Shown here piece by piece: positions 442-43,804 of a stretch of DNA of 64,000 nt (position 1 is its first letter; every line of letters starts with the position of its first letter). Where the stretch lies: the NCBI RefSeq assembly GCF_026626685.1, contig NZ_JAPNJX010000001.1, positions 76,752 to 140,751 of the forward strand, read 5' to 3'. Source of the DNA: Nannocystis sp. SCPEA4. Lineage in GTDB: Bacteria > Myxococcota_A > Polyangia > Nannocystales > Nannocystaceae. Made by a program: the position numbers and the translations under genes. The notes beneath the pieces were generated by a model. The model searched no databases. It saw only the letters and a list, made by a program, of their open reading frames with translations, and had not been told where the DNA came from.

Positions 442-577
442 TTCATTCGGGCATACAAGACCCCCCCTGCCGATCGAGCGACGCCCTCGTTCGAAGCGAC
501 CACTCCGCCTCACGACAAGCGGGGCCCGCCACACTCTTCTGGGGCGGCCTCGCGGCGGCGGAGTGGGACGCAGCGAG

Positions 578-1887
578 CAACCGTCAGGCGTGTCAAGGCA
601 TCTTCGTCCACGGCGTGTTGGACCGGACCATGGCGTTGAGGATGACAAGGAGCTTGCGCATGCAGGCCACGATAGCGACCTTGTCGGGTTTCCCGGAGGC
701 CCTCAGGTGCGCGTAGTACTCGGCGAGCTGCGAGTTGTAGGCGTGCCCGACGGCGGCGCGCGTCGTGGCGTACAGAGCCCGACGGATGTCATGCCGGCCG
801 CCTCGGATATGGCGTTCTCCGCGGTGCTTGCCCGAGTCACAGTTGAACGGTGCGACGCCGACAAGGGCGGCGATCGCCGTGCGGCTGAGCTTCCCGAGCT
901 CGGGAAGGCCAGCGAGAAGGGTCATCGAGAGCACACGACCTACGCCTGGAACGCTCTGGAGCAGCTTGTCGGCCTCGCGCCAGATCGGGCTGGCTTTGAT
1001 CGCTTTGCGGAGCTCCTTCTCGATGTCCTTGAGCTCCTGGTCGATCCACGCGACGTGGCGCTCGAGGCTCTGGCGCTCGCGCTTGTACAGTGCCGTTCGC
1101 AGCCGGTTGTTCTCGCTGATCTGGTTCTCTTGCAGCTGCTTGCGCCGACGAACGAGCGAGTCGATCTCCATCGTCTGCTCATCCTTGAGTGGCCGGGGCT
1201 CGGGCTTGAAGACCTCGGCGTACTCGGCGATCACGGCTGCGTCGATCTTGTCCGTCTTGGCGAGTCGGCCCTTGGCCTTGGCGAAGTCGCGGATCTGTCT
1301 CGCGTTCACCACCGCGACGGGGAGCCCAGCCGCGGCCAGCGCCGCTGCCACCGGGATCTCGTAGCCGCCTGTCGGTTCCATCACGATCAGCACCGGATCG
1401 AGCTGCTTCAGCCTGTCGATCAGGGCCGCGATAGCCGCCGGGTCATTGGCAATCTCAAACACCGGGCCTCGCGGTCCGAGGGCCACACAGAGGGTCTCCT
1501 TCGCAAGATCAATGCCGATGTACTGGTTCTTCGGGTCTTCTGGGGTCATGGCGATCCTTGCCGACGAATGTCCCGCGCCTCTCCCGCCGCCCTGCCTTGC
1601 AGGATTCGAGCTCGGTCTGACCGGCTCAGGCAACCGTTCGGGCTCTTGGAGAAGTCAACGCTTGGCGATCCTCGCTCTCTGGCGGGCTTGAGGCTCAGGG
1701 GCCCTACGATCTACCGAGCGCCCGGGAGCGAAGTCGTACCGCTTCTCAAGCCCACAAGCGGTTCGACAGCACACCAGAATTTCACTGGGAGAAAATCAAG
1801 GAGAGCGTCCGGCGATCCCTGCTCCCTGGCGGGCTCATGGCACCGGGGCCCCATCGATCTGCCGGACGCTCGGGGAGTTGATACAAG
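578..1887 (-). mobile_element. IS110-family insertion sequence (~1.31 kb), no obvious terminal IRs or target duplication
   Basis: Boundaries inferred from the uninterrupted repeat copy at 37100-37260. There is a single DEDD-type transposase ORF. The 335-bp non-coding arm is upstream of the transposase and the other arm is 15 bp, which is the typical IS110 asymmetry. Confidence 0.75.
593..1549 (-). CDS. IS110-family transposase (DEDD recombinase)
   Basis: N-terminal YIGIDLAKETLCVAL motif and C-terminal IS116/IS110/IS902 transposase-domain motifs (GVGRVLSMTLLAGLPELG, FNCDSGKHRGERHIRGGR). ATG at 1549. Confidence 0.85.
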   Translation of the reverse strand: MTPEDPKNQYIGIDLAKETLCVALGPRGPVFEIANDPAAIAALIDRLKQLDPVLIVMEPTGGYEIPVAAALAAAGLPVAVVNARQIRDFAKAKGRLAKTDKIDAAVIAEYAEVFKPEPRPLKDEQTMEIDSLVRRRKQLQENQISENNRLRTALYKRERQSLERHVAWIDQELKDIEKELRKAIKASPIWREADKLLQSVPGVGRVLSMTLLAGLPELGKLSRTAIAALVGVAPFNCDSGKHRGERHIRGGRHDIRRALYATTRAAVGHAYNSQLAEYYAHLRASGKPDKVAIVACMRKLLVILNAMVRSNTPWTKMP

Positions 1888-4675: not shown

Positions 4676-6751
4676 CTAACGCTTTTTGCTCGGACCGACC
4701 GGCAACAAATCGTCATCCGGCGCGGGGTTCGGCTTCTGCTTGACCTGCCCGTCGGGCGGCCGCTTGGTCCCGCCGCCCCCCGGTTTTTTGGTCCCGCCGC
4801 CCGCCGGCGGCTTCGGCTGCTCCACCGGCGGCTGCGGGATCGGCGTCGTCCCGGCCTTGGCCGTCAGCATGTAGTCGTAGGGCTGGTCCTTGGCCGCGCT
4901 GACGCTCAGCGCGGTCTGCATCGGCCCGTAGCCGGGCGCGGCCAGCGTGAGGTTGTATTTGCCGGCGTGCAGCGGCACCTCGACCGTGGTCGAGCCGAGC
5001 GGCCGCCCGTCGAGCGTGACCTCCGCAGTCACCGGGGCCGACCGGATCGTGATGATCGCGAACCCCATGTCCGGGTTCAGCTCCGGGAACAGCCCCTTGA
5101 TGCGCTGCTTCGCCTCCTCGTTGGCGGCGTCGAGCGCCAGCACGTCGCGGTAACCCTTGACCGCGCTGATGCGATCGCCGTCGCGCTCGTACTTGCGGGC
5201 GCTGGCCAGCGCCTTCTGCACCTCGAGCTTCGACCGCAGCTCGTCGGCGCGGTCGGACAGCTCCGGGTCGCGGGCGAACTCCTCCTCGGCGATCTCGAGC
5301 TTGCGCTCGGCCTGCGGCAGCTTGCCCTCGTCGATGAGCTGCGCGATCTTGTCGAGGTTGCTCTCGAGCTGCTCGCGCCCGCCCTCCTCGCGGGTCGCGA
5401 CCTCGGGGCGGTCGGCCTCGGCCTCGTTGCTGCCGCCGCCGAACGCGTACAGCAGCAACGCCAGCACCGAGAAGGCCGCCGCGCCGACCAGGATCAGGTT
5501 GAAGGTCCGCTGGCGGGCCGCGGCCTCTTGCGCCTGCGGACCGACCACCAGCAGCGTGCGCCCGTCCTGGCTCTGCACCAGGCTCCCGCCCTCGAGCGGG
5601 ATGCCCTGGGCCTTGAGCTGGTCGAGCGTCGCCTGCGGAAACTGAGCCGTGATCGGCATCACCGGCGACGGCATCGACTGTGCCAGTGCACCGGCGCCCG
5701 ACATCGGCTGCGCAAGGGGCGCGGCGGCAGCGGCCGGTGCCGACCGCGGCCGGCCGAACGTGCCGACCACGATATTCTCCGGCGACGGGATCGGCTTGCT
5801 GTGTTCGGTGCTGCTCTGCGGCTCCTCCGGCTCGAGCGGCTCCGTCCGCGGCTGGGCGCGCGGCAGGCGGAACATCGAGAACGGCACCTGGTCGATGAGC
5901 CCCTCGACGACCTCGTTGGCGTCGCGCGGGCGGCGTTCCCGGCTCTTCTCGAGGCACCGGCTGATGAGCTCCAGGACCCCTTCGGGGACGCCGTTGTCGG
6001 GCGGCAGGAGGTCCTGGATCGGCTGCGCCTTCTCGTGGACGTGCTTGTACAGGACCGACGCGTCGTTGTCGGCCTGGAACGGCATCACGCCCGTCAGCAT
6101 GAAGTAGAACAGGATGCCGACCGCGTAAACATCGACGCGCTGGTCGATCTTCTCGCCCAGGATCTGCTCCGGAGACAGGCAGGTGGGCGTGCCGAGGACG
6201 TTCTGCTTGGTGATGTCGGACGAGCCGGAGACCAGCTTTGCGAGCCCGAAATCGAGGATTTTGACGTAGTTGGCCCGGCCCTGCCGCTCGCACAGCATGA
6301 TGTTGGCGGGCTTGATGTCGCGGTGGATGATCCCGCGCGAATGGGCCTCGCCGAGGCCTTTGAGCACCTGCGCGGCGATCGGCACGAAGTCGGCCAGCGT
6401 GAGGTGGCCGCGGCGGCGGACGAACCGGTCGAGCGTCTCGCCCTGGACGTACTCCATGACGATGAAGGCCCGTCCGTCGATCCGGCCGAAGTCGTGGATG
6501 GTCACGATGTTCGGGTGCTGCAGGCTGGAAAGCCCGCGGGCCTCGCGTTCAAAGCGGGCCAGGGCCTCGGAATCGCCGACCCAGTCGGGCGCCAGCACCT
6601 TGAGGACCACCGGGCGATTCAGGTCGATCTGCGTCGCCTGGTACACGACGCCCATCCCACCGCGGCCGAGCCGGCGCTCGATCAGGTAGCGCCGAGCGAA
6701 AGTCGTCCCCAGCAGGGGGTCTGCTTGTGCTTGGTCTTCCGGTTTGCTCAT
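4676..6751 (-). CDS. Hanks-type Ser/Thr protein kinase with TM segment and extracellular TPR/PEGA domains
   Basis: Kinase motifs GRGGMGVVY, VLK, HRDIKPANIML, DFGLAK. One TM segment after a Pro-rich linker. C-terminal PEGA-like beta domain. Confidence 0.9.
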   Translation of the reverse strand: MSKPEDQAQADPLLGTTFARRYLIERRLGRGGMGVVYQATQIDLNRPVVLKVLAPDWVGDSEALARFEREARGLSSLQHPNIVTIHDFGRIDGRAFIVMEYVQGETLDRFVRRRGHLTLADFVPIAAQVLKGLGEAHSRGIIHRDIKPANIMLCERQGRANYVKILDFGLAKLVSGSSDITKQNVLGTPTCLSPEQILGEKIDQRVDVYAVGILFYFMLTGVMPFQADNDASVLYKHVHEKAQPIQDLLPPDNGVPEGVLELISRCLEKSRERRPRDANEVVEGLIDQVPFSMFRLPRAQPRTEPLEPEEPQSSTEHSKPIPSPENIVVGTFGRPRSAPAAAAAPLAQPMSGAGALAQSMPSPVMPITAQFPQATLDQLKAQGIPLEGGSLVQSQDGRTLLVVGPQAQEAAARQRTFNLILVGAAAFSVLALLLYAFGGGSNEAEADRPEVATREEGGREQLESNLDKIAQLIDEGKLPQAERKLEIAEEEFARDPELSDRADELRSKLEVQKALASARKYERDGDRISAVKGYRDVLALDAANEEAKQRIKGLFPELNPDMGFAIITIRSAPVTAEVTLDGRPLGSTTVEVPLHAGKYNLTLAAPGYGPMQTALSVSAAKDQPYDYMLTAKAGTTPIPQPPVEQPKPPAGGGTKKPGGGGTKRPPDGQVKQKPNPAPDDDLLPVGPSKKR

Positions 6752-6875
6752 GGCTTCTCGGGGGACCCTGTGACGTTAACACACCTTCCCCCGGTGTTGC
6801 GCGTCTTCGGCAAAACCCGGCGGCAGTTGCCGCAATGGCGCGCTCGTAGAAGCGCGGGACGACGCAGTCGACAGC

Positions 6876-8354
6876 TTGTGGCATGCTGCGGCCGTGCCCA
6901 CGACCCTGAGCTTCGCCCCGACCATTCCCGCTCTGCTCCACGGCAGCCGCGCCGTCCTCGTCGTCGCGGCGGCCGGCGTCCTCACCGGTGAGTTGCCGGC
7001 GTTCCTGCCGGCGCCGGCGCAGGCGCTGCTCGCCGAACTCGCGCGGGACACCAAACCGGGCGAGCTCGGAGCGGTATCCGGAACGCTGACCGGCCTGTCG
7101 GAGCCGCGCCGGTTGCTCCTCGGCGTGCTGCCCGACCACGGGTCTCGCTACAATTCGCCGAGCCGCGCCGAGAGCGTCCGCCGCGTGGTCGCCGGAGCGG
7201 ACCTCGGCAGCACCAAGGCCGGCATCATCCTGATCCTGCCGGATCCGGCGCACCTGCTGGCCACGGTCAACGCGGTCGGCCGCGCTCTCCCGCTCTATTC
7301 GAGCAAGAGCGGCGCGAGCAGCGGCGCCGAGGTCCAGATCCTCGCGCTCGACCTCGCCGGTCAACCGATCCCGATCCCGCCCGAGGTCGAGTCGACGATG
7401 CACGCCACGCGGATCGCCGCGCTGCACGTGGATACCCCGCCGACCGAGCTCAATCCCGAGGAGTTCGCCGCCCGCGCGCGCGACTTGTTGACCGCGATTC
7501 CGCGGGTCGAACTGCGCGAGATCGTCGGCGACGCCCTGCTCCAGGAGGGCCTCGCCGGCATCCACGCCGTCGGCCGCTGCGCGGTCAAGCCGCCGCGCAT
7601 GCTCATCGCCCAGTACACCCCGGCGACCGGCGGTGGCCGCTCGATCGCGCTGGTCGGCAAGGGCATCACGTACGACACCGGCGGTCTCAGTCTCAAGATC
7701 AGCGGCGCGATGAACACGATGAAGGGCGACTGCGGCGGCGCGGCCGCCGTGCTCGGGGCCTTCTGCGTGCTGGCCGCCAATCATTGCAAGCACAAGCTCT
7801 CGCTGATCCTCTGCATCGCCGAGAACGCCGTCGGCCCCGGCGCCTACAAGCCCGACGACATCCTCCGCATGCACTCCGGCAAGACCGTCGAGATCAACAA
7901 CACCGACGCGGAGGGCCGCCTGCTGCTCGCCGACGGCGTCAGCTACGCCACGCGAGCGCTCGGCGCCGAGGTCGTGTTCGACGCCGCCACCCTCACCGGC
8001 GCCCAGTTGATCTCGACCGGCCTGCTCCACGCCGCCATCGTCAGCAACGACGAGTTCCTCGAGCAGACCATCATCGCCGCCGGCAAGCACTGCGGCGACC
8101 TCGTCCACCCGCTGCCGTTCGCGCCCGAATTCTACAAGCAAGAATTCGAGAGTAATATCGCAGATATGGTCAATTCTGTAAAGAATCGCATGAACGCCCA
8201 GTCGGCCTGCGCGGCGCAGTTCGTCTACTGGCACATGGACGACACCAAGGCGTTGTGGTGCCACATCGACCTGGCGGGGCCGAGCTTCCCGAAGAACCGC
8301 GGCACTGGCTTCGGCGTGGCGCTGCTGTCGGAGACGATCCGCCGGATCCCCTGA
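6876..8354 (+). CDS. pepA: Leucyl aminopeptidase (peptidase M17)
   Basis: NTDAEGRL signature, the VGKGITYDTGG motif, and N-terminal M17 domain features. TTG start at 6876; a downstream ATG is possible. Confidence 0.9.
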   Translation: MWHAAAVPTTLSFAPTIPALLHGSRAVLVVAAAGVLTGELPAFLPAPAQALLAELARDTKPGELGAVSGTLTGLSEPRRLLLGVLPDHGSRYNSPSRAESVRRVVAGADLGSTKAGIILILPDPAHLLATVNAVGRALPLYSSKSGASSGAEVQILALDLAGQPIPIPPEVESTMHATRIAALHVDTPPTELNPEEFAARARDLLTAIPRVELREIVGDALLQEGLAGIHAVGRCAVKPPRMLIAQYTPATGGGRSIALVGKGITYDTGGLSLKISGAMNTMKGDCGGAAAVLGAFCVLAANHCKHKLSLILCIAENAVGPGAYKPDDILRMHSGKTVEINNTDAEGRLLLADGVSYATRALGAEVVFDAATLTGAQLISTGLLHAAIVSNDEFLEQTIIAAGKHCGDLVHPLPFAPEFYKQEFESNIADMVNSVKNRMNAQSACAAQFVYWHMDDTKALWCHIDLAGPSFPKNRGTGFGVALLSETIRRIP

Positions 8355-33833: not shown

Positions 33834-35464
33834 GCGACAACTTCCTCGACGTCATCCACGCCGCGGTCCAGAAGACCCGCGAGGATCACCTGCTCATCGA
33901 GCTCCACGGCAAGGAGCGGCGCCCGACCTCGGCCGCGCAGCTGCTGCACCTCGTCGCCCACGCGCGCGGCTTCCTCCGCCGCGCCGGCGTCAAGCCCGGC
34001 GACCGCGTCGCCCTGCTCGCCCCCAACTCCGCGCGGTGGGTCGCGGCTGACCTTTCGATCCTGTTCGAAGGTGCGATCGTCGTCCCCCTCTACAGCCGCC
34101 AGGACCCGCGCGAGCTGGCCGTCATGGTCAAGGACTGCAGCCCGGTGCTCGTCATCGCCGACGGCCCCGAGCTCGCCGCCGGCCTGCGCGGCGCCTGGCC
34201 CGAGCACTGCCCAATCGAGGACCTGCGCGACGTCCTCCGCGGCGATCCGGTGCACGAGCCGCCGCGCCCGGTCGCGCCCGCCGATCCGGTCACGATCATC
34301 TACACCTCCGGCACCAGCGGCGAGCCCAAGGGCGTCGTCCTCACCCGCGCCAACGTCGACTACATGCTGCCGCAGACCCGCAGCAGCGTCGACAAGATCA
34401 CCGGCGGGCAGCGGGCCGACAAGGTGTTCCACTTCCTGCCGTTCTGCTTCGCCGGCTCGCGCATCATGCTGTGGACGCAGCTGTACCGCGGCAACCCGCT
34501 GCTGCTGTCGACCGACCTGCAGAACCTCGTCGCCGAGATGGGCGCCGCCGATCCGCACTACTACCTCAACGTCCCCGCCGTGCTCGAGCGGATCAAGAAC
34601 GGCGTCGGCAAGAAGATCGCGGAGCGCGGCGGCGTCGCCCTCGCCCTCTACCAGCGCGGCCAGGCCGCCTTCCGCCGCCAGCGCGAAGGCAAAGCTGGCC
34701 TTGCGGACAGGCTCACCCTCGCCCTCGCCAAGAGGCTCGTCTTCAGCAAGATCAAGCAGCAGGTCGGGCCCAGCCTCGAGTTCCTGATCTGCGGCTCGGC
34801 CGCGCTCGCCGAAGAGACCCAGTGGTGGTTCGAGCTGATCGGCGTGCAGGTCTACCAGGTCTACGGCCTGACCGAGACCACCGCGATCGTCACCATGGAC
34901 ACCCCCGGCGGCGTGCGCCCCGGCTACGTCGGCCACGCCATCGGCGGCTGCGAGCTCAAGCTCAGCGACGAGGGCGAGCTGCTGGTGCGCGGCCCGGGCA
35001 TCTTCGCCGGCTACTGGAAGCGCGAGCAGGCCACCGCCGAGGCCATCCGCGACGGCTGGTTCCACACCGGCGACCAGTGCGAGCTCGACCACACCGGCAA
35101 CCTGCGGATCATCGGTCGCGTCAAGAACATCCTCGTCCCCGAGTCGGGCCACAACATCGCCCCCGAGCCGATCGAGGAGAAGTTCATGACCGCCTGTCCG
35201 CGCGCCGAGCAGTGCATGCTCGTCGGCCACGCGCGCCCCTTCCTCGGCATCATCGTCCCTGGCGACGTCCCGAAGGAGGACATCGACGCCGCGCTCGAGG
35301 TCGTCAACGCCAGCGTCCCGCACTACAAGAAGATCCGCGCCTTCATCCGCGTCGCCGACCCGTTCACCATCGAGAACGGCCTCCTCACCGCCAACCAGAA
35401 GCTGCGGCGCCGCGCCGTCGAGCAGCGCTACCGCGCCGAGATCGACAGGGCCTACGCGTCATGA
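33830..35464 (+). CDS. Long-chain acyl-CoA synthetase (AMP-dependent ligase)
   Basis: YTSGTSGEPKG, YGLTET and GWFHTGD motifs. Start overlaps the upstream stop (ATGA). Confidence 0.85.
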   Translation: MSDNFLDVIHAAVQKTREDHLLIELHGKERRPTSAAQLLHLVAHARGFLRRAGVKPGDRVALLAPNSARWVAADLSILFEGAIVVPLYSRQDPRELAVMVKDCSPVLVIADGPELAAGLRGAWPEHCPIEDLRDVLRGDPVHEPPRPVAPADPVTIIYTSGTSGEPKGVVLTRANVDYMLPQTRSSVDKITGGQRADKVFHFLPFCFAGSRIMLWTQLYRGNPLLLSTDLQNLVAEMGAADPHYYLNVPAVLERIKNGVGKKIAERGGVALALYQRGQAAFRRQREGKAGLADRLTLALAKRLVFSKIKQQVGPSLEFLICGSAALAEETQWWFELIGVQVYQVYGLTETTAIVTMDTPGGVRPGYVGHAIGGCELKLSDEGELLVRGPGIFAGYWKREQATAEAIRDGWFHTGDQCELDHTGNLRIIGRVKNILVPESGHNIAPEPIEEKFMTACPRAEQCMLVGHARPFLGIIVPGDVPKEDIDAALEVVNASVPHYKKIRAFIRVADPFTIENGLLTANQKLRRRAVEQRYRAEIDRAYAS

Positions 35465-36234
35465 TCGACTGGACCTACGACAGCGGCGTCTACGAGCTCA
35501 CCCTCGCCACGCCGCCCTGCAACGAGATCGGCACGGCGATGCTCGCCGATCTGCGCCGCTTCATCGACCAGATCGATCGCGACGCCCACACCCTCATCCT
35601 CCGCAGCGGCCTGCGCCAGGGCTTCTGCGCCGGCGCCGACCTGCGCGAGCTCTACCGCGGCCTGTGCGACGCCCCCGCCGAGCAGCACGGCCCGCAGATC
35701 CGCAAGTTCATCGACGAGATCCACGGCGTCATGGACGACCTCGACATGCTGCCGCTGACCACCGTCGGCGTCGTCCACGGCGTCTGCTTCGGCGGCGGCT
35801 TCGAGCTCGCGCTCACCTGCGACGTCCTGATCGCCGAGAAGTCGGCCCGCTTCTGCTTCCCCGAGCTGCGCCTCGGCATCATCCCCGGCTTCGGCGGGAT
35901 CCCGCGCCTGCGCCGCGACGTCGGCAACGGCCTCATCCGCGACCTCCTGCTCAGCGGCCGCAGCATCAACGCCAAGAAGGCCCAGGCCGCCGGCCTCGTC
36001 AGCCAGGTCGTCGCCGGCGGCGAGGGCATCACCGCCGCGCGCGCCCTCGCGGCCCAGACCGCCAAGTTCGATCCGACGGCGCGCAAGGCCGCCAAGGCCT
36101 TCATCAAGAAGCTCCCGACCGACGAGCTCGTCGCCGAGCGCGAGCTGTTCGTCCGCCTGGCCCAGGGACCCGCGCTGCTGGCCGCCCTCAAGCGCTTCGT
36201 CGAATCCACCGACCTGCGGCCCTACCTGCCATGA
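35461..36234 (+). CDS. Enoyl-CoA hydratase/isomerase (crotonase fold)
   Basis: Crotonase motifs GFCAGADL and GGGFELALTCD. ATGA overlap with the upstream gene. Confidence 0.85.
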   Translation: MIDWTYDSGVYELTLATPPCNEIGTAMLADLRRFIDQIDRDAHTLILRSGLRQGFCAGADLRELYRGLCDAPAEQHGPQIRKFIDEIHGVMDDLDMLPLTTVGVVHGVCFGGGFELALTCDVLIAEKSARFCFPELRLGIIPGFGGIPRLRRDVGNGLIRDLLLSGRSINAKKAQAAGLVSQVVAGGEGITAARALAAQTAKFDPTARKAAKAFIKKLPTDELVAERELFVRLAQGPALLAALKRFVESTDLRPYLP

Positions 36235-36261
36235 GCCTCCTCGTTCCACACCAGCGCGGAG

Positions 36262-36597
36262 CCTCGAGCTGCGACGCATCTCTTGTTCCGCATTGGCGCG
36301 GGACCTCGAGCTGCGACTCGTCTCTTGTTTCGCGCGGGCGCGGGGCCTCGAGCTGCGACACATCTCTTGGTCCGCATTGGCGCGGGGCCTCGAGCTGCGA
36401 CGCATCTCTTGGTCCGCATTGGCGCGGGGCCTCGAGCTGCGACGCATCTCTTGGTCCGCATTGGCGCGGGGCCTCGAGCTGCGACGCATCTCTTGGTCCG
36501 CATTGGCGCGGAACCTCGAGCTGCGGCTCGTCTCTTGTTCCGCGCCGGTGCGGGGCCTCGAGCTGCGCCTCGTCTCTTGTTCCGCGCTGGCGCGGGG
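36262..36597. repeat. 42-bp minisatellite x8 (cctcgagctgcgacgcatctcttggtccgcattggcgcgggg), non-coding
   Basis: Eight head-to-tail units, the central four identical. The periodic ORFs on both strands are repeat artefacts. Confidence 0.8.
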
Positions 36598-36879
36598 CCA
36601 CGGAGACCCGGGGGGGTCGGCCCGGGCGCGGCGGAGCGGGTCCCTCGCTACGCGAGACCTGCCATGCCAGGTGCTCGCCGGCGATGTTTTGCTCTCCGCT
36701 TTCCGAAGGTTCTCTCGCCGTCTGCGCGCCAGGCATGGGGCCCCTCGCTGCGTCCCACTCCGCCGCGCCCGGGCCGACCCAGAAGATCCTCGAGCGGCCC
36801 CGCTCATCCCCGCGCGGCTGTCCCTTCGGTCCTGCTTCCAGGAACCTGTCTGAACGAGCAGGAGTGACGCTCTCCGTCT

Positions 36880-37560
36880 CTCGACAAGCGGTACCCCTCA
36901 CGCCCTCCGTTCTCTCGTTCGAAGCGACCATCTCCGCCTCACGACAAGCAGGGCCCGCCACGACCTCCTCGCGCGAAGCGACCATCTCCGCCTCACGACA
37001 AGCGGGGCCCGCCACTGCCTCCGCTCTCTCGCTCGAAGCGACCATCTCCGCCTCACGGCAAGCGGGGCCCGCCACGGCCTCCGCTCTCTCGCGCGAAGCG
37101 GTCATCTCCGCCTCACGACAAGCGGGGCCCACCACAATCTTCTGGGGCGGCCTCGCGGCGGCGGAGTGGGACGCAGCGAGGGGCCCCATGCCTCACGCGC
37201 AGACGCGGGATCAATCCTCGGACATGCCCCATCGCCCTTCCGCGTCGAGCATGTGGCATGGCAGGTCTCGCGTCGCGAGGGACCCGCTCCGCCGCCGCGA
37301 GGCCGCCCCTCCCCGCTCCCCACGGCCCCGCGTCTCCGCACACGCGATTCCCGATGCCTCTCGCCTGAGCCGCTCCCCACGGCCCCGCGTCCCCGCGCAC
37401 GCGATCCGAGACGACTCTCGCCTGAGCCGCTCCTCACGGCCCCGCGTCCCCGCGCACGTGCTCTTCGACGCGTCTCGCCCGAGCCGCCCGAGCAGCCCCG
37501 CGTCCGAGCACGCCTGATTCCCGTCCCGACAGCAGAAGCCCGCAGAACATTGAGAGCAAA
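36880..37560. repeat. Dispersed composite repeat, copy B: ~60-bp unit x4.5 (36885-37140), shared core (37100-37330), second ~58-bp unit x3 (37330-37500)
   Basis: ~95% identity to 505-577 plus 1888-2050. Both tandem blocks are collapsed to one unit in copy A. Contains the GGACATGCCCCAT motif. Confidence 0.75.
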
Positions 37561-37564
37561 TCCG

Positions 37565-37798
37565 ATGAGCGACACTCTCGACACACTCATCCGTCTCGCC
37601 GCCAAGCGCTTCGGCGCCGATCCGGCCAAGCTCCGCGCCGAGGACGACCTGTTCGAGCGCCTGGGCATCGACAGTTTTCAGGCCGTCGAGCTCATCTCGG
37701 ACGTCGAGGACGAGTTCGACGTCGAGCTGCCCGACTACGAGCTTCAGGGGATCAAGACCTTCGCTGCTCTGGCGCAGAAGATCGACGCGAGGCGCTAG
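37565..37798 (+). CDS. Acyl carrier protein
   Basis: 77 aa; LGIDSFQAVEL phosphopantetheine-attachment motif. Confidence 0.85.
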   Translation: MSDTLDTLIRLAAKRFGADPAKLRAEDDLFERLGIDSFQAVELISDVEDEFDVELPDYELQGIKTFAALAQKIDARR

Positions 37799-41253: not shown

Positions 41254-41568
41254 TCGTCAGCGGACCGCCCCGGTCGTCGATCGGGGTCGGTCGATCCTCC
41301 GTCTGCATCTCGCGGCGGTGAGCATGTGGGCCCGGGTGTCATCGCTGCCGCGGCGCCCATCACTCGCCGGCAACCGCAGTGAGATCGTTGCGAGTTTCTT
41401 TGCAGGTGCACGCCGCGTCGATCCTGGTGTGTGTCACGGACGCACGAATGCGAGCGCGTACGTGACCGGACAATCGTAACGCCGGACGCTTGCATCCGGA
41501 TCGCAACCTCCTCGCTTGCGCTCCACAATGACCTCGATCATGCAGTTCGGTCAGGAGATGATGAGCTC

Positions 41569-42585
41569 ATGACTCGTGGGATCTGCCTTCTGCTCATCGG
41601 TTCGGTGGTGGCCTGTGATGTCGTCGAGAACGACGACGGAACAGCGATTACGGTACGCAACGACGAAGACAACGGCATCGCGTTGAATACCGCGCAGCTC
41701 AACGGCTGGAACCTCAACGGTATGCGCATGAACGGCACCGCCCTCAACGGCATGCGCATGAACGGCTGGAACCTCAACGGGTGGAACCTCAACGGCATCA
41801 GCCTGGTCGGCAGCAGTTTCTCTGCCACCCACGACGTCGACGGCACGCCCGTGCCCGTCAGCGGCGACGACCTGATCGGTTCGGTGCTCACGCTCGAGGG
41901 CGGCGGCACCACCTTCGTCCTGCGCTTCGACGACATCTATCTCGACCCGGCCGACCCGAACGGCGACGTGTGGTTCTACGACATCGCCGTCCAGGACAAC
42001 GAGACCAGCCTGTGGTCGAGCCTCTGCAACGACCACAACGGGCAGCCGACCCAGGCGATCGCCATCGCCAACTGGTGGAACCCCACCACCGGCGCGCGGG
42101 TCGACGATCCCACGGCGGTGACGTTCGCCTGCCGCGACGCCGTGCTGGCCAAGTGTGTCGAGTGGGGCTACCGCCCGTGGGCCACCGTCGGCGGCGTCGG
42201 GCTCGCCGATCACCACCAGACGTGCACGCGGCTGGCCCGTGCCGACTACTGCGGCGACGGCACCCCGCACACCTTCACCGGCACGCCGATCGACGTGTTC
42301 GACGCGCTCAGCCCGGCGATCCAGAGCCCGGCCACGCTCGAGCGGCAGAACTGGGGCATCGAGGCCGAGTGGGGCCCGAACGGCGCTGTGTGCATCGGCG
42401 ACCAGCTGCGCCTCAAGATGTACGACGACAACGGCGTGCCCTACGACTTCCCGGGCTGCTTCGACGCCCTCGACGACATCAGCGGCTGCGGCGACTTCGA
42501 CAGCAGCCGCGGTGCCCTCCTCGCCGACCGCTACTGCGACGTGTGGGAGAGCGACCCGGGCGCCTGCGCGGCCGCCACGTACTAG
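41569..42585 (+). CDS. Lipoprotein with pentapeptide repeats (NLNGW/RMNGT x7) and Cys-containing C-terminal domain
   Basis: Lipobox IGSVVAC, five-residue tandem repeats, and an AGGAG RBS. Confidence 0.6.
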   Translation: MTRGICLLLIGSVVACDVVENDDGTAITVRNDEDNGIALNTAQLNGWNLNGMRMNGTALNGMRMNGWNLNGWNLNGISLVGSSFSATHDVDGTPVPVSGDDLIGSVLTLEGGGTTFVLRFDDIYLDPADPNGDVWFYDIAVQDNETSLWSSLCNDHNGQPTQAIAIANWWNPTTGARVDDPTAVTFACRDAVLAKCVEWGYRPWATVGGVGLADHHQTCTRLARADYCGDGTPHTFTGTPIDVFDALSPAIQSPATLERQNWGIEAEWGPNGAVCIGDQLRLKMYDDNGVPYDFPGCFDALDDISGCGDFDSSRGALLADRYCDVWESDPGACAAATY

Positions 42586-42596
42586 TGCCGAGACCG

Positions 42597-43804
42597 GGTG
42601 TTACTGATCAGGTTGAGGCGCGAATTTGCGCCTCGCGCAAAAACCTGATCTACAGGCTTCATGAGGCAGAAGAAGCCGACCCGGCCGTGGTTCCCCGGGC
42701 TCAAGCTCAAGCAGGAAGATCGAGAGCTCCTGCGTCGTAAGGCGCGGGAGCGGCTCACCGAGAGGACCTGGAAGCGGATCCGTGCGCTTCAGATGCTGGA
42801 CGAGGGGTACTCGCTTGCAGCCACGGCGGCGGCGATCGGTTCGGCCGTTCCGTCGGTGCGTCGTGTCGGGGAGCGATATCTCGCCTCTGGCGTCGAGGTA
42901 GCGCTGAAGGATGCGAAGCGACCACTTCGGCCACGAAGGCTCGACACGCGACAGGAGGCGGCGATCATCGCCATGGTCTGCGGGCCTGCCCCCGAAGGCC
43001 GCGCTCGATGGACGATCATGCTCATCGTCGAAGAGAGCATCAAACGCGGGATCGTCGACGAGGTCGGTCGGGAGACGATCCGCGTGCTGCTCAAGAACCA
43101 CGAACTGAAACCGTGGCGGGAAAAAAATGTGGTGCGTCCCACGACTGGACGAGCACTACGTGGCGCGCATGGACGACGTACTCGACACGCTCGCGCAACC
43201 GCAGGACGCGGCCGAGCCAGTCGTCGCACTCGATGAGCGGCCAGTCGTCCTCCGTGACTCTGCGCGGCAAGGCCGCTGCGCGTCACCCGGCCGGTTGGCG
43301 CGCATGGACTACGAATACGTACGTCGCGGGACCGCGAACATCTTCTGCATCGTCGAACCGAAGGCCGGCCGTCACATGACCTTCGCCACGCCGAACCGCA
43401 AAGGCTGCGAGTTCGCGCGTGCGCTCCGGAAGATCGCCCGCCGATACTCCTCTGCGAGGACGATCCACCTGGTCATGGATAACCTCAGCACGCACAGCCA
43501 GAACTCCTTGTGCACAGCCTTCGGAGATCAAGCGGGACGTGCGCTGTGGAATCGCTTCACGGTGCACTACACACCGAAGCACGGCAGCTGGCTCAACCCC
43601 GCCGAGATCGAAGCGAGCCTGTGGTCACGCGAGTGCCTCGGGCGCCTGCGCATCGGCTCGCTCGCAGAGCTTCGCCGTCGAACGTCTCGATGGAACGCCG
43701 ACGCTCACCGGCGACGCCGGAAGATCACCTGGCGGTTCACGAAAGAACGTGCCCGCTCCGTGTTCAAGATCGACCAGATCGATACGGCCCGGTCGCGGCA
43801 CTAG
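42597..43804 (+). mobile_element. Degenerate IS630-family (Tc1/mariner-like) element; inverted repeat gatcaggtt...aacctgatc at the 5' side, no recognisable right end
   Basis: The transposase reading frame is split. Its 3' end overlaps the stop of the convergent hydrolase gene by 4 bp, leaving no room for a right IR. Confidence 0.6.
42661..43804 (+). pseudogene. IS630-family transposase interrupted by a +1 frameshift at an A7 homopolymer (~43118-43124); orfA 42661-43236, orfB frame from 43127
   Basis: Frame A ends ...LKPWREKNVV. Frame +1 reads KKMWCVPRLDEHY, the conserved IS630 KPWREKMWCVP junction, which would be restored by A6. Confidence 0.75.

Follow-up and report, generated by a model that had tools for sequence, protein, structure and literature searches.

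In a 64-kb stretch of the genome of Nannocystis sp. SCPEA4 (64,000 nucleotides, hereafter the window, in whose coordinates positions are given), we analysed a tandem-repeat island of 1.3 kb (36235-37564) lying between the crotonase and acyl carrier protein (ACP) genes of a lipid operon. The operon is made of nine plus-strand genes: two NAD_binding_4 reductases, a pyruvyl-transferase-like protein, an AMP-ligase, the crotonase, the ACP, and downstream of the latter a second AMP-ligase, a DAG-kinase-like protein and an acyltransferase. At all junctions other than the one holding the island, the genes overlap or lie no more than 30 nt apart. Domain searches with Pfam agreed with the original prediction on the position of the island, which is flanked on the left by the crotonase (enoyl-CoA hydratase) gene at 35461-36234 (ECH_1, E 3.6e-37; GC content at third codon positions, GC3, of 0.97; stop codon TGA at 36232-36234) and on the right by the ACP gene at 37565-37798 (PP-binding, E 1.8e-13), both on the plus strand. 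Tandem arrays were located with Tandem Repeats Finder (TRF). The three arrays recovered within the island are the sole long-period arrays in the non-coding DNA of the window, and they correspond within a few bases to the 42-bp x 8, roughly 60-bp x 4.5 and roughly 58-bp x 3 units that had been reported from the sequence alone.

Read on the plus strand, the island begins and ends in a 6-bp direct duplication, ATGAGC. The left copy (36231-36236) holds the crotonase stop and the former ACP start, and the right one (37565-37570) is the present ACP start. Between them come a 42-bp x 8.2 array (36254-36599; 89% matches), a hairpin repeat copy of about 220 nt in antisense to the operon (36589-36809, minus strand; nhmmer profile score 171.5), a central spacer between the 5' ends of the two copies, enclosing a small hairpin CCTGCT...AGCAGG (36810-36870), a 60-bp x 4.5 array (36871-37135), a second hairpin copy in sense to the operon (37116-37334, plus strand; score 184.4, minimum free energy (MFE) -142.9 kcal/mol), a 57-bp x 3.4 array (37313-37505) and a unique tail (37506-37564), in which a GAGAG Shine-Dalgarno-like motif stands 9-13 nt before the ACP start. 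This tail matches the orthologous island only and no other locus. As a whole the island is a large imperfect palindrome, with arms at 36584-36680/37243-37339 and 36702-36800/37124-37222 that are 79-81% complementary. Alignment of these arms with a dispersed copy of the repeat elsewhere in the window (copy A, described below) identified within the island two copies of one element in inverted orientation.

Every tandem unit includes one terminus of this element. Each 42-bp unit contains GCGCGGGGCC, the reverse complement of the 3' terminus of the left, inverted copy. The 60-bp unit, delimited by alignment with copy A and other copies, joins about 37 nt of 5' flank or extension to the first 23 nt or so of the right copy (CGACAAGCGGGGCC...), and the 57-bp unit joins the 3' terminus of the right copy, CACGGCCCCGCG, to about 40 nt of flank.

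The island is non-coding. In the frame of the open reading frame (ORF) at 36231-37517 its codon-position GC is 0.66/0.73/0.75 and no periodicity is seen in any frame, as against a GC3 of 0.89-0.99 and a second-position GC of about 0.44 in the nine flanking genes. This ORF starts at the ATG of the ATGA overlap and stays open to 37517, and the three array periods of the island are all divisible by 3, as would be expected of a repetitive protein translationally coupled to its neighbours in the manner of MIRU elements. Such a protein is effectively refuted: the codon-position signal that takes GC3 above 0.88 in every real gene is absent, almost every one of the six frames is open, which a GC content of 71% leads one to expect, and the hairpin element is found in both orientations and between convergent genes. 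Periods of 26, 40, 62, 64, 67, 113 and 122 bp, none a multiple of 3, were found in arrays at other copies of the element, so that the divisibility within the island is a coincidence.

Insertion at the crotonase-ACP junction

The crotonase homologues were traced to their contigs, which yielded seven island-free relatives and three island-bearing strains (the window and loci L022 and L008). Exact look-ups of the crotonase and ligase proteins of the window gave no record, in a collection that does not include the genome of the window. Among the former, the two genes overlap by ATGA in L023, L026, L027 and L030, whose crotonase is 85-94% identical to that of the window, and are separated by 4 nt in L028 and L029 (80% identical). 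In the remaining relative, L021 (N. pusilla GCA_026626665.1), positions 6001-7002 form a fused ORF of 333 aa, matched at 93% over 76% of the query, which joins ECH_1 and PP-binding in one called protein in place of two genes overlapping by ATGA. The island has 1329 bp in L022 (N. pusilla GCA_020073745.1; crotonase 98% identical to that of the window) and 1226 bp in L008 (N. radixulma NCELM; flanking DNA 95-99% identical). The view of the island as placed inside a tightly coupled operon is thus borne out by the junctions of the relatives, which are an ATGA overlap, a 4-nt gap or a fusion. The empty site in L023 and L021 reads CTGCCATGAGCACC, and the occupied alleles carry ATGAGC at both junctions. 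Because this hexamer was duplicated, the crotonase stop and the ACP start are both retained. Judged by this comparison, the island is an insertion in one Nannocystis lineage, at the overlapping stop and start codons of formerly coupled genes.

Repeat copy number had been predicted to vary at this locus, and all three arrays do differ among the three island-bearing strains. For the 42-bp array the unit counts are 8, about 7 and 2, the units of L022 belonging to a distinct variant homogenised within the array; for the 60-bp array they are 4.5, 5.5 and 4.7, and the 57-bp array shows unit-size insertions and deletions. Within the window, three consecutive 42-bp units (36380-36505) are identical, which points to a recent expansion. 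The parts of the island differ widely in their conservation between strains: the hairpins align without gaps at 96-97% (left) and 98-99% (right) identity, the central spacer at 85-92% identity, with about 60 extra bases in L022 and L008, and the arrays at 62-87% identity with many unit-sized gaps.

A family of hairpin repeats in Nannocystis

The extent of the family was estimated by scanning one genome per species for a 20-mer common to the two island copies and copy A. The exact 20-mer was matched 25 times in 20 loci, 23 matches being in N. radixulma NCELM and one each in N. bainbridge and N. punicea; a second conserved 25-mer was present in just 2 metagenome contigs. Complete copies (n=26) measure 219-226 nt, or about 290 nt with extensions, start with AGCGGGGCC and end with GGCCCCGCG. 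Two core blocks, TGGGACGCAGCGAGGGGCCCCATGCCT and GAGCATCTGGCATGGCAGGTCTCGCGTCGCGAGGGACCC, are almost invariant and conserved across the three species, the termini GCGGGGCC and GGCCCCGC are kept in 24-26 of the 26 copies, and the entire unit is an inverted repeat, so that it has the terminal inverted repeats of miniature inverted-repeat transposable elements (MITEs). The sequence 5' of the element is conserved within subfamilies only. No Rfam 15 family was matched at gathering score in the window; at E <= 10 the only hit was a chance microRNA match (E 5.2, 18 bits for a gathering score of 137). Neither plasmids nor phages had any similarity to the island, and our literature search found no described myxobacterial repeat of this kind.

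The consensus fold calculated with RNAalifold is one long rod of 66 pairs. Compensatory double changes affect 22 of these, most of them in the outer stem (about 23 bp), which varies in sequence by subfamily while its complementarity is kept. Paired alignment cells amount to 98.4%, and the observed covariation score was attained in 0 of 500 shuffles. As a control, one strand was slid by 1-3 columns, which lowered pairing to 42-48% and left 3-5 compensatory pairs. The element has a polarity: its profile score is about 180 for one strand and falls to about 25 for the opposite strand. Single copies fold at about -140 to -150 kcal/mol; the mean single-sequence MFE is -148 kcal/mol on both strands, and the fold of the reverse strand reaches -129 kcal/mol against -133 kcal/mol. 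We also attempted to deduce the functional strand, and an RNA rather than a DNA function, from the excess of G-U over A-C pairs (134 against 4). This count was discarded as an artefact of predicting the structure on that same strand, the reverse strand folding equally well with G-U pairs of its own.

All hairpin copies are intergenic. With gene calls that were made by GC3 and are approximate, 18 loci could be classified: co-directional genes flank 12 of them, convergent genes 6 and divergent genes none; if divergent sites made up a quarter of the total, zero of 18 would occur by chance with a probability of 0.75^18, about 0.006. Solo copies between co-directional genes have no orientation bias (5 sense, 4 antisense). 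Paired copies are head-to-head, with 5' ends facing, in 7 of 7 independent loci (the island, L006, L007, L013, L018, L031 and L032). The space between paired copies is filled by duplicated 5' ends. Locus L006 is a paralogous composite in which the same two subfamilies stand in the same order with the same kinds of arrays (60-bp x 6.9, 54-bp x 4.9 and about 1.5 units of the 42-bp type). A composite rather than a single hairpin seems to have been copied into the operon.

At no fewer than 12 other loci, an element terminus is overlapped by a tandem duplication, the periods ranging over 26-177 bp. Full copies at L009 (5961-6472), L002 (6849-7377), L005 (4599-4937), L017 (1828-2200) and L032 (1404-1774) are immediately preceded by tandemly repeated fragments of the element's 5' 70-165 nt; these arrays, of period 113-186 bp, are enlarged counterparts of the 60-bp one. 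The profile search also showed tandem partial 5' copies at L013. Since arrays of this kind recur at many unrelated intergenic loci, they are a trait of the repeat family and not of the operon.

Copy A occupies 481-2076 on the plus strand (481-577 and 1886-2076), between convergent genes and between the terminator-like hairpins of these two neighbours, and is split by an insertion sequence (IS). The common core announced by the original prediction was recovered: window positions 503-577 and 1886-2061 match 37106-37354 at 96-97%, and copy A has, as had been noted, one unit of each kind (one 60-type and one 57-type). Its orthologue in N. radixulma (L010) is uninterrupted, and in the orthologous spacer of N. 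punicea and N. bainbridge the site is empty. Together with the counts of 23 against 1 and 1, the empty orthologous sites indicate that the repeat proliferated recently in one lineage, as REP/REPIN, ERIC/Correia-type and MITE elements do.

The sequence interrupting copy A (578-1885, minus strand) is an IS110-family element of 1308 bp with a transposase at 593-1633 (Pfam DEDD_Tnp_IS110 and Transposase_20). It is missing from the orthologous copy L010 and splits the conserved core as GCAGCG/AG/GGGCCCC (target GCAGCG-AG-GGGCCCCAT), AG being present at both junctions. Its 252-nt non-coding end (1634-1885) includes GGGGCCCCAT, identical to the right flank of the target. A different, unrelated IS110-family element is inserted in L013 (about 1356-2700) at the mirror-image site CGCGTCGCGAG/GGACCC of another copy. 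These two elements are inserted into the repeat and have no sequence in common with it. IS110-family elements use bridge RNAs and target REP sequences (IS621, ISPpu9, ISPpu10; PMC11208160, PMC12288879). Given the two insertions at mirror-image core sites and the identity of the GGGGCCCCAT flank, the hairpin core appears to serve as a bridge-RNA target for elements of this family.

A second, short dispersed palindrome was also observed, GGACATGTCC, with 21 occurrences (at most 1 mismatch) for 1.9 expected. Its sites include window positions 421, 2120, 14942, 16764, 26000, 26867 and 26955, as well as L006 5100-5165 and the L033 and L034 spacers. It is often the tip of a perfect hairpin right after a stop codon, for example at 405-445 and 2100-2142, and in N. 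punicea and N. bainbridge the stem flanking it varies compensatorily while the 10-mer is kept. It could be a terminator-like or a protein-binding motif. The apex of the 220-nt element bears a near-copy of it, TCGGACATGCCC.

Origin of the island and its effect on the operon

We consider it probable that the island is non-coding DNA derived from the single insertion of a head-to-head hairpin-repeat pair, equipped with self-derived arrays and belonging to a REP/REPIN/MITE-like family. This family is best read as an undescribed interspersed repeat of Nannocystis, REP- and MITE-like, with the behaviour of variable number tandem repeats (VNTRs). A single event in the ancestor of a small N. pusilla/N. 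radixulma subclade would have brought a head-to-head pair of the Nannocystis-specific repeat into the 4-nt ATGA stop/start overlap of the crotonase and ACP genes, ATGAGC being duplicated on insertion. The three arrays would then not be separate features but duplicated element termini with their adjoining flank, probably generated at the base of the strong hairpins, by slippage during replication or by unequal exchange. Such a process would let the arrays expand, contract and homogenise faster than the strains diverge, while leaving the hairpins nearly unchanged. The family itself would act as a selfish or neutral interspersed palindromic repeat that is also an insertion target for IS110-family elements.

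Several observations weigh against this account. The outermost 28 and 59 nt of the island are unique sequence and do not form an inverted repeat together, and the 6-bp duplication was seen in one case only, so that transposition is at most a putative mechanism; at L006 and at copy A the flanks are too diverged for ends or target duplications to be defined. The family has no linked transposase or other mobilising enzyme, and the 298 kb of loci, a small search space, contained no autonomous parent element. Because both strands fold equally well, a function at the RNA level cannot be separated from one at the DNA level, and the conservation and covariation of the hairpin are equally compatible with a host function, for instance as RNA. 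Lastly, the slippage origin of the arrays is deduced from their position and pattern, and the effect on the operon is read entirely from sequence.

As regards this effect, the two genes no longer overlap by ATGA, and the ACP now follows the crotonase after 1.3 kb of untranslated sequence. The four downstream genes have a dN/dS of 0.04-0.30 between the window and L022, both island-bearing, with 0.30 for the ACP gene, and these values are no higher than those of the upstream genes. The downstream genes are therefore under purifying selection and still used, and any polarity imposed by the island does not abolish their function. Folded as RNA, 36560-37360 has a computed MFE of -495 kcal/mol (z = -16), and the two copies are computed either to fold on themselves or to pair together over about 215 bp. 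The sense strand of the 60- and 57-bp arrays contains 43-46% C and 25-26% G, and a C-rich, G-poor composition is favoured by Rho. A read-through mRNA would thus carry a very stable structure beside C-rich, G-poor stretches, which would most likely affect processing, stability or Rho-dependent polarity between the halves of the operon while leaving downstream expression in place. With moderate confidence, we infer that the island alters mRNA processing, stability or polarity and does not switch expression.

The original prediction had proposed such switching: the island would be a host regulatory module with an internal promoter or terminator, whose unit number would make expression of the ACP-ligase-kinase-acyltransferase half phase-variable. 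The unit-number differences among the three strains, the very recent expansion implied by the three identical consecutive 42-bp units, the parting of genes that are translationally coupled elsewhere and the need for the downstream genes to be expressed, given purifying selection, would all suit this proposal. The consensus scan of the island lent it no support, returning no sigma-70-like site and a single weak terminator-like site for 1.4 expected by chance, and no sigma-54-like spacing was seen by eye. Simple-sequence contingency loci vary by a tract of 1-9 nt within an ORF or between the -35 and -10 boxes, and here the units measure 42-60 bp, are non-coding and fall outside any reading frame or recognisable promoter spacer. 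Terminal arrays of this kind, with periods of 26-177 bp, occur in unrelated contexts, convergent genes included, and the variation lies between strains, none being documented within a population. We therefore hold phase-variable regulation to be improbable.

The hairpins might also have been co-opted in the mRNA, whether for processing by RNase III or RNase E or for blocking 3' exonucleases, giving the two halves of the operon different stabilities and causing the island to be maintained. REP, ERIC and Correia repeats have been described as elements of mRNA processing and stability. The folding energy of each copy (about -140 to -150 kcal/mol), the duplex of about 215 bp open to the two copies, and the higher conservation of the hairpins between strains compared with the adjoining spacers (96-99% against 85-92%) agree with such a role, as does the placement of the substitutions between strains, most of which lie in the apical loop or yield wobble pairs. 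Moreover, every copy is downstream of at least one gene and none is between divergent genes, so that the copies are probably transcribed. On the other hand, the copies show no preference for either orientation with respect to transcription (5 sense, 4 antisense), both strands fold equally well, the island-free relatives manage with a 4-nt overlap, and the structures are computed predictions. Taken together, a maintained mRNA element is rather unlikely. Still less credence is due to the possibility that each hairpin is an independent structured small RNA gene, the pairs being divergently transcribed from the centre with promoter- or terminator-proximal arrays. The strong covariation, the two nearly invariant blocks across three species, the clear polarity of the profile score (about 180 against about 25) and the facing 5' ends in 7 of 7 paired loci would fit such genes. 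But no Rfam family matches at E <= 10 save the spurious microRNA, the centre has no promoter-like site, and the 5' sequence is conserved within subfamilies only. Some 23 copies against 1 and 1, with absence at orthologous sites, are moreover the mark of a proliferating mobile repeat and not of a conserved gene family, and we judge this reading highly improbable.

In a more daring reading, which we advance as a tentative possibility, the head-to-head pair with its self-expanding arrays would be the transposing unit of an undescribed class of non-autonomous, foldback-like bacterial mobile elements, whose single-strand fold would be recognised by a trans-acting enzyme; the 6-bp duplication and the use of the core as an IS110 landing pad would be part of the same picture. 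It may instead be that the host retains the invariant core as a functional RNA or a protein-binding module.

Relation to known repeat families

The preferred reading, an inserted pair from an interspersed repeat family, was set against the known systems that it recalls. REP sequences are 20-40 nt long and REPINs about 70-110 nt, with a GTAG-type head, hundreds of copies and mobilisation by RAYT (Y1) enzymes. The Nannocystis repeat resembles REP, BIME and REPIN elements in being extragenic and palindromic, in lying downstream of genes or between co-transcribed or convergent genes in both orientations, in forming inverted doublets or clusters, in its lineage-specific proliferation and in being an IS110-family target (PMC11208160, PMC12288879). 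Thus it has the extragenic position 3' of genes, the double orientation and the inverted doublets of this group. It differs in its unit of about 220 nt and about 66 base pairs, which is not a short palindrome and is devoid of a GTAG-type head, in its copies, which are in the tens and not the hundreds, and in its tandem terminal arrays, which are no REP feature; its size and missing head motif exclude it from REP.

Correia (CREE/NEMIS) and ERIC/IRU sequences are MITE-like palindromes of 100-150 bp that are co-transcribed and processed in mRNA. Here again we find imperfect palindromes in the intergenic regions of operons, long hairpins (predicted in our case) in the read-through mRNA, presence/absence polymorphism between strains and a short target duplication at the insertion. 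The Nannocystis unit is larger, its outer stem covaries where Correia and ERIC have conserved terminal inverted repeats, it forms head-to-head composites with tandem arrays, and the single target duplication is of 6 bp and not TA. RNase processing, a promoter and an IHF site are traits on the Correia/ERIC side of the comparison.

The MIRU-VNTRs of mycobacteria are tandem repeats of 40-100 bp in operons, with short ORFs overlapping the neighbouring stop and start codons. Units of that size between operon genes, with a number polymorphic between strains, are present here as well. The island shows no coding signal, the array periods of the family include non-triplet ones, and the arrays are appendages of a hairpin element instead of free-standing units; having no in-phase ORF, the element is excluded from MIRU. 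With MITEs it has terminal inverted repeats in common, the one target duplication seen being of 6 bp and no parent IS having been found in the 298 kb of loci. Foldback (FB) transposons are eukaryotic elements with known partner transposases and long inverted arms bearing variable tandem sub-repeats. The likeness of the island to them (long inverted arms with variable sub-repeats around a short centre, no coding sequence) is architectural only, FB elements being eukaryotic and having their partner transposases, where the Nannocystis element has no known mobilising enzyme. On the whole, the Nannocystis family works most like REP/REPIN and Correia/ERIC sequences, and its arrays like MIRU-type VNTRs, each defining set being incomplete.

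The locus offers a natural experiment in which close relatives have the same nine-gene lipid operon with either a 4-nt overlap or 1.3 kb of structured non-coding DNA at one junction. Comparing island-bearing with island-free strains could gauge the importance of operon coupling and the effects of long hairpins on bacterial mRNA. The repeat family is an undescribed component of the very large Nannocystis genomes, whose repeat content is hardly studied, and its arrays are ready VNTR markers. Arrays growing from hairpin ends would also provide a testable link between strong secondary structure and local tandem duplication, and the use of interspersed repeats as landing sites by IS110-family elements would be an added case outside Pseudomonas and E. 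coli.

Two further features were observed in the window downstream of the operon. In the gene following it (ORF 41431-42585, plus strand), coding tandem repeats of 15 and 30 bp at 41701-41796 encode an asparagine/glycine-rich peptide (LNGWNLNGMRMNG...) and are kept in N. radixulma (L008 1205-1299). At 42661-43804, two overlapping plus-strand ORFs of 191 and 225 aa have by eye the look of a frameshifted IS630-type transposase, with an N-terminal DNA-binding part followed by a putative DDE part containing DNLSTH...WLNPAE.

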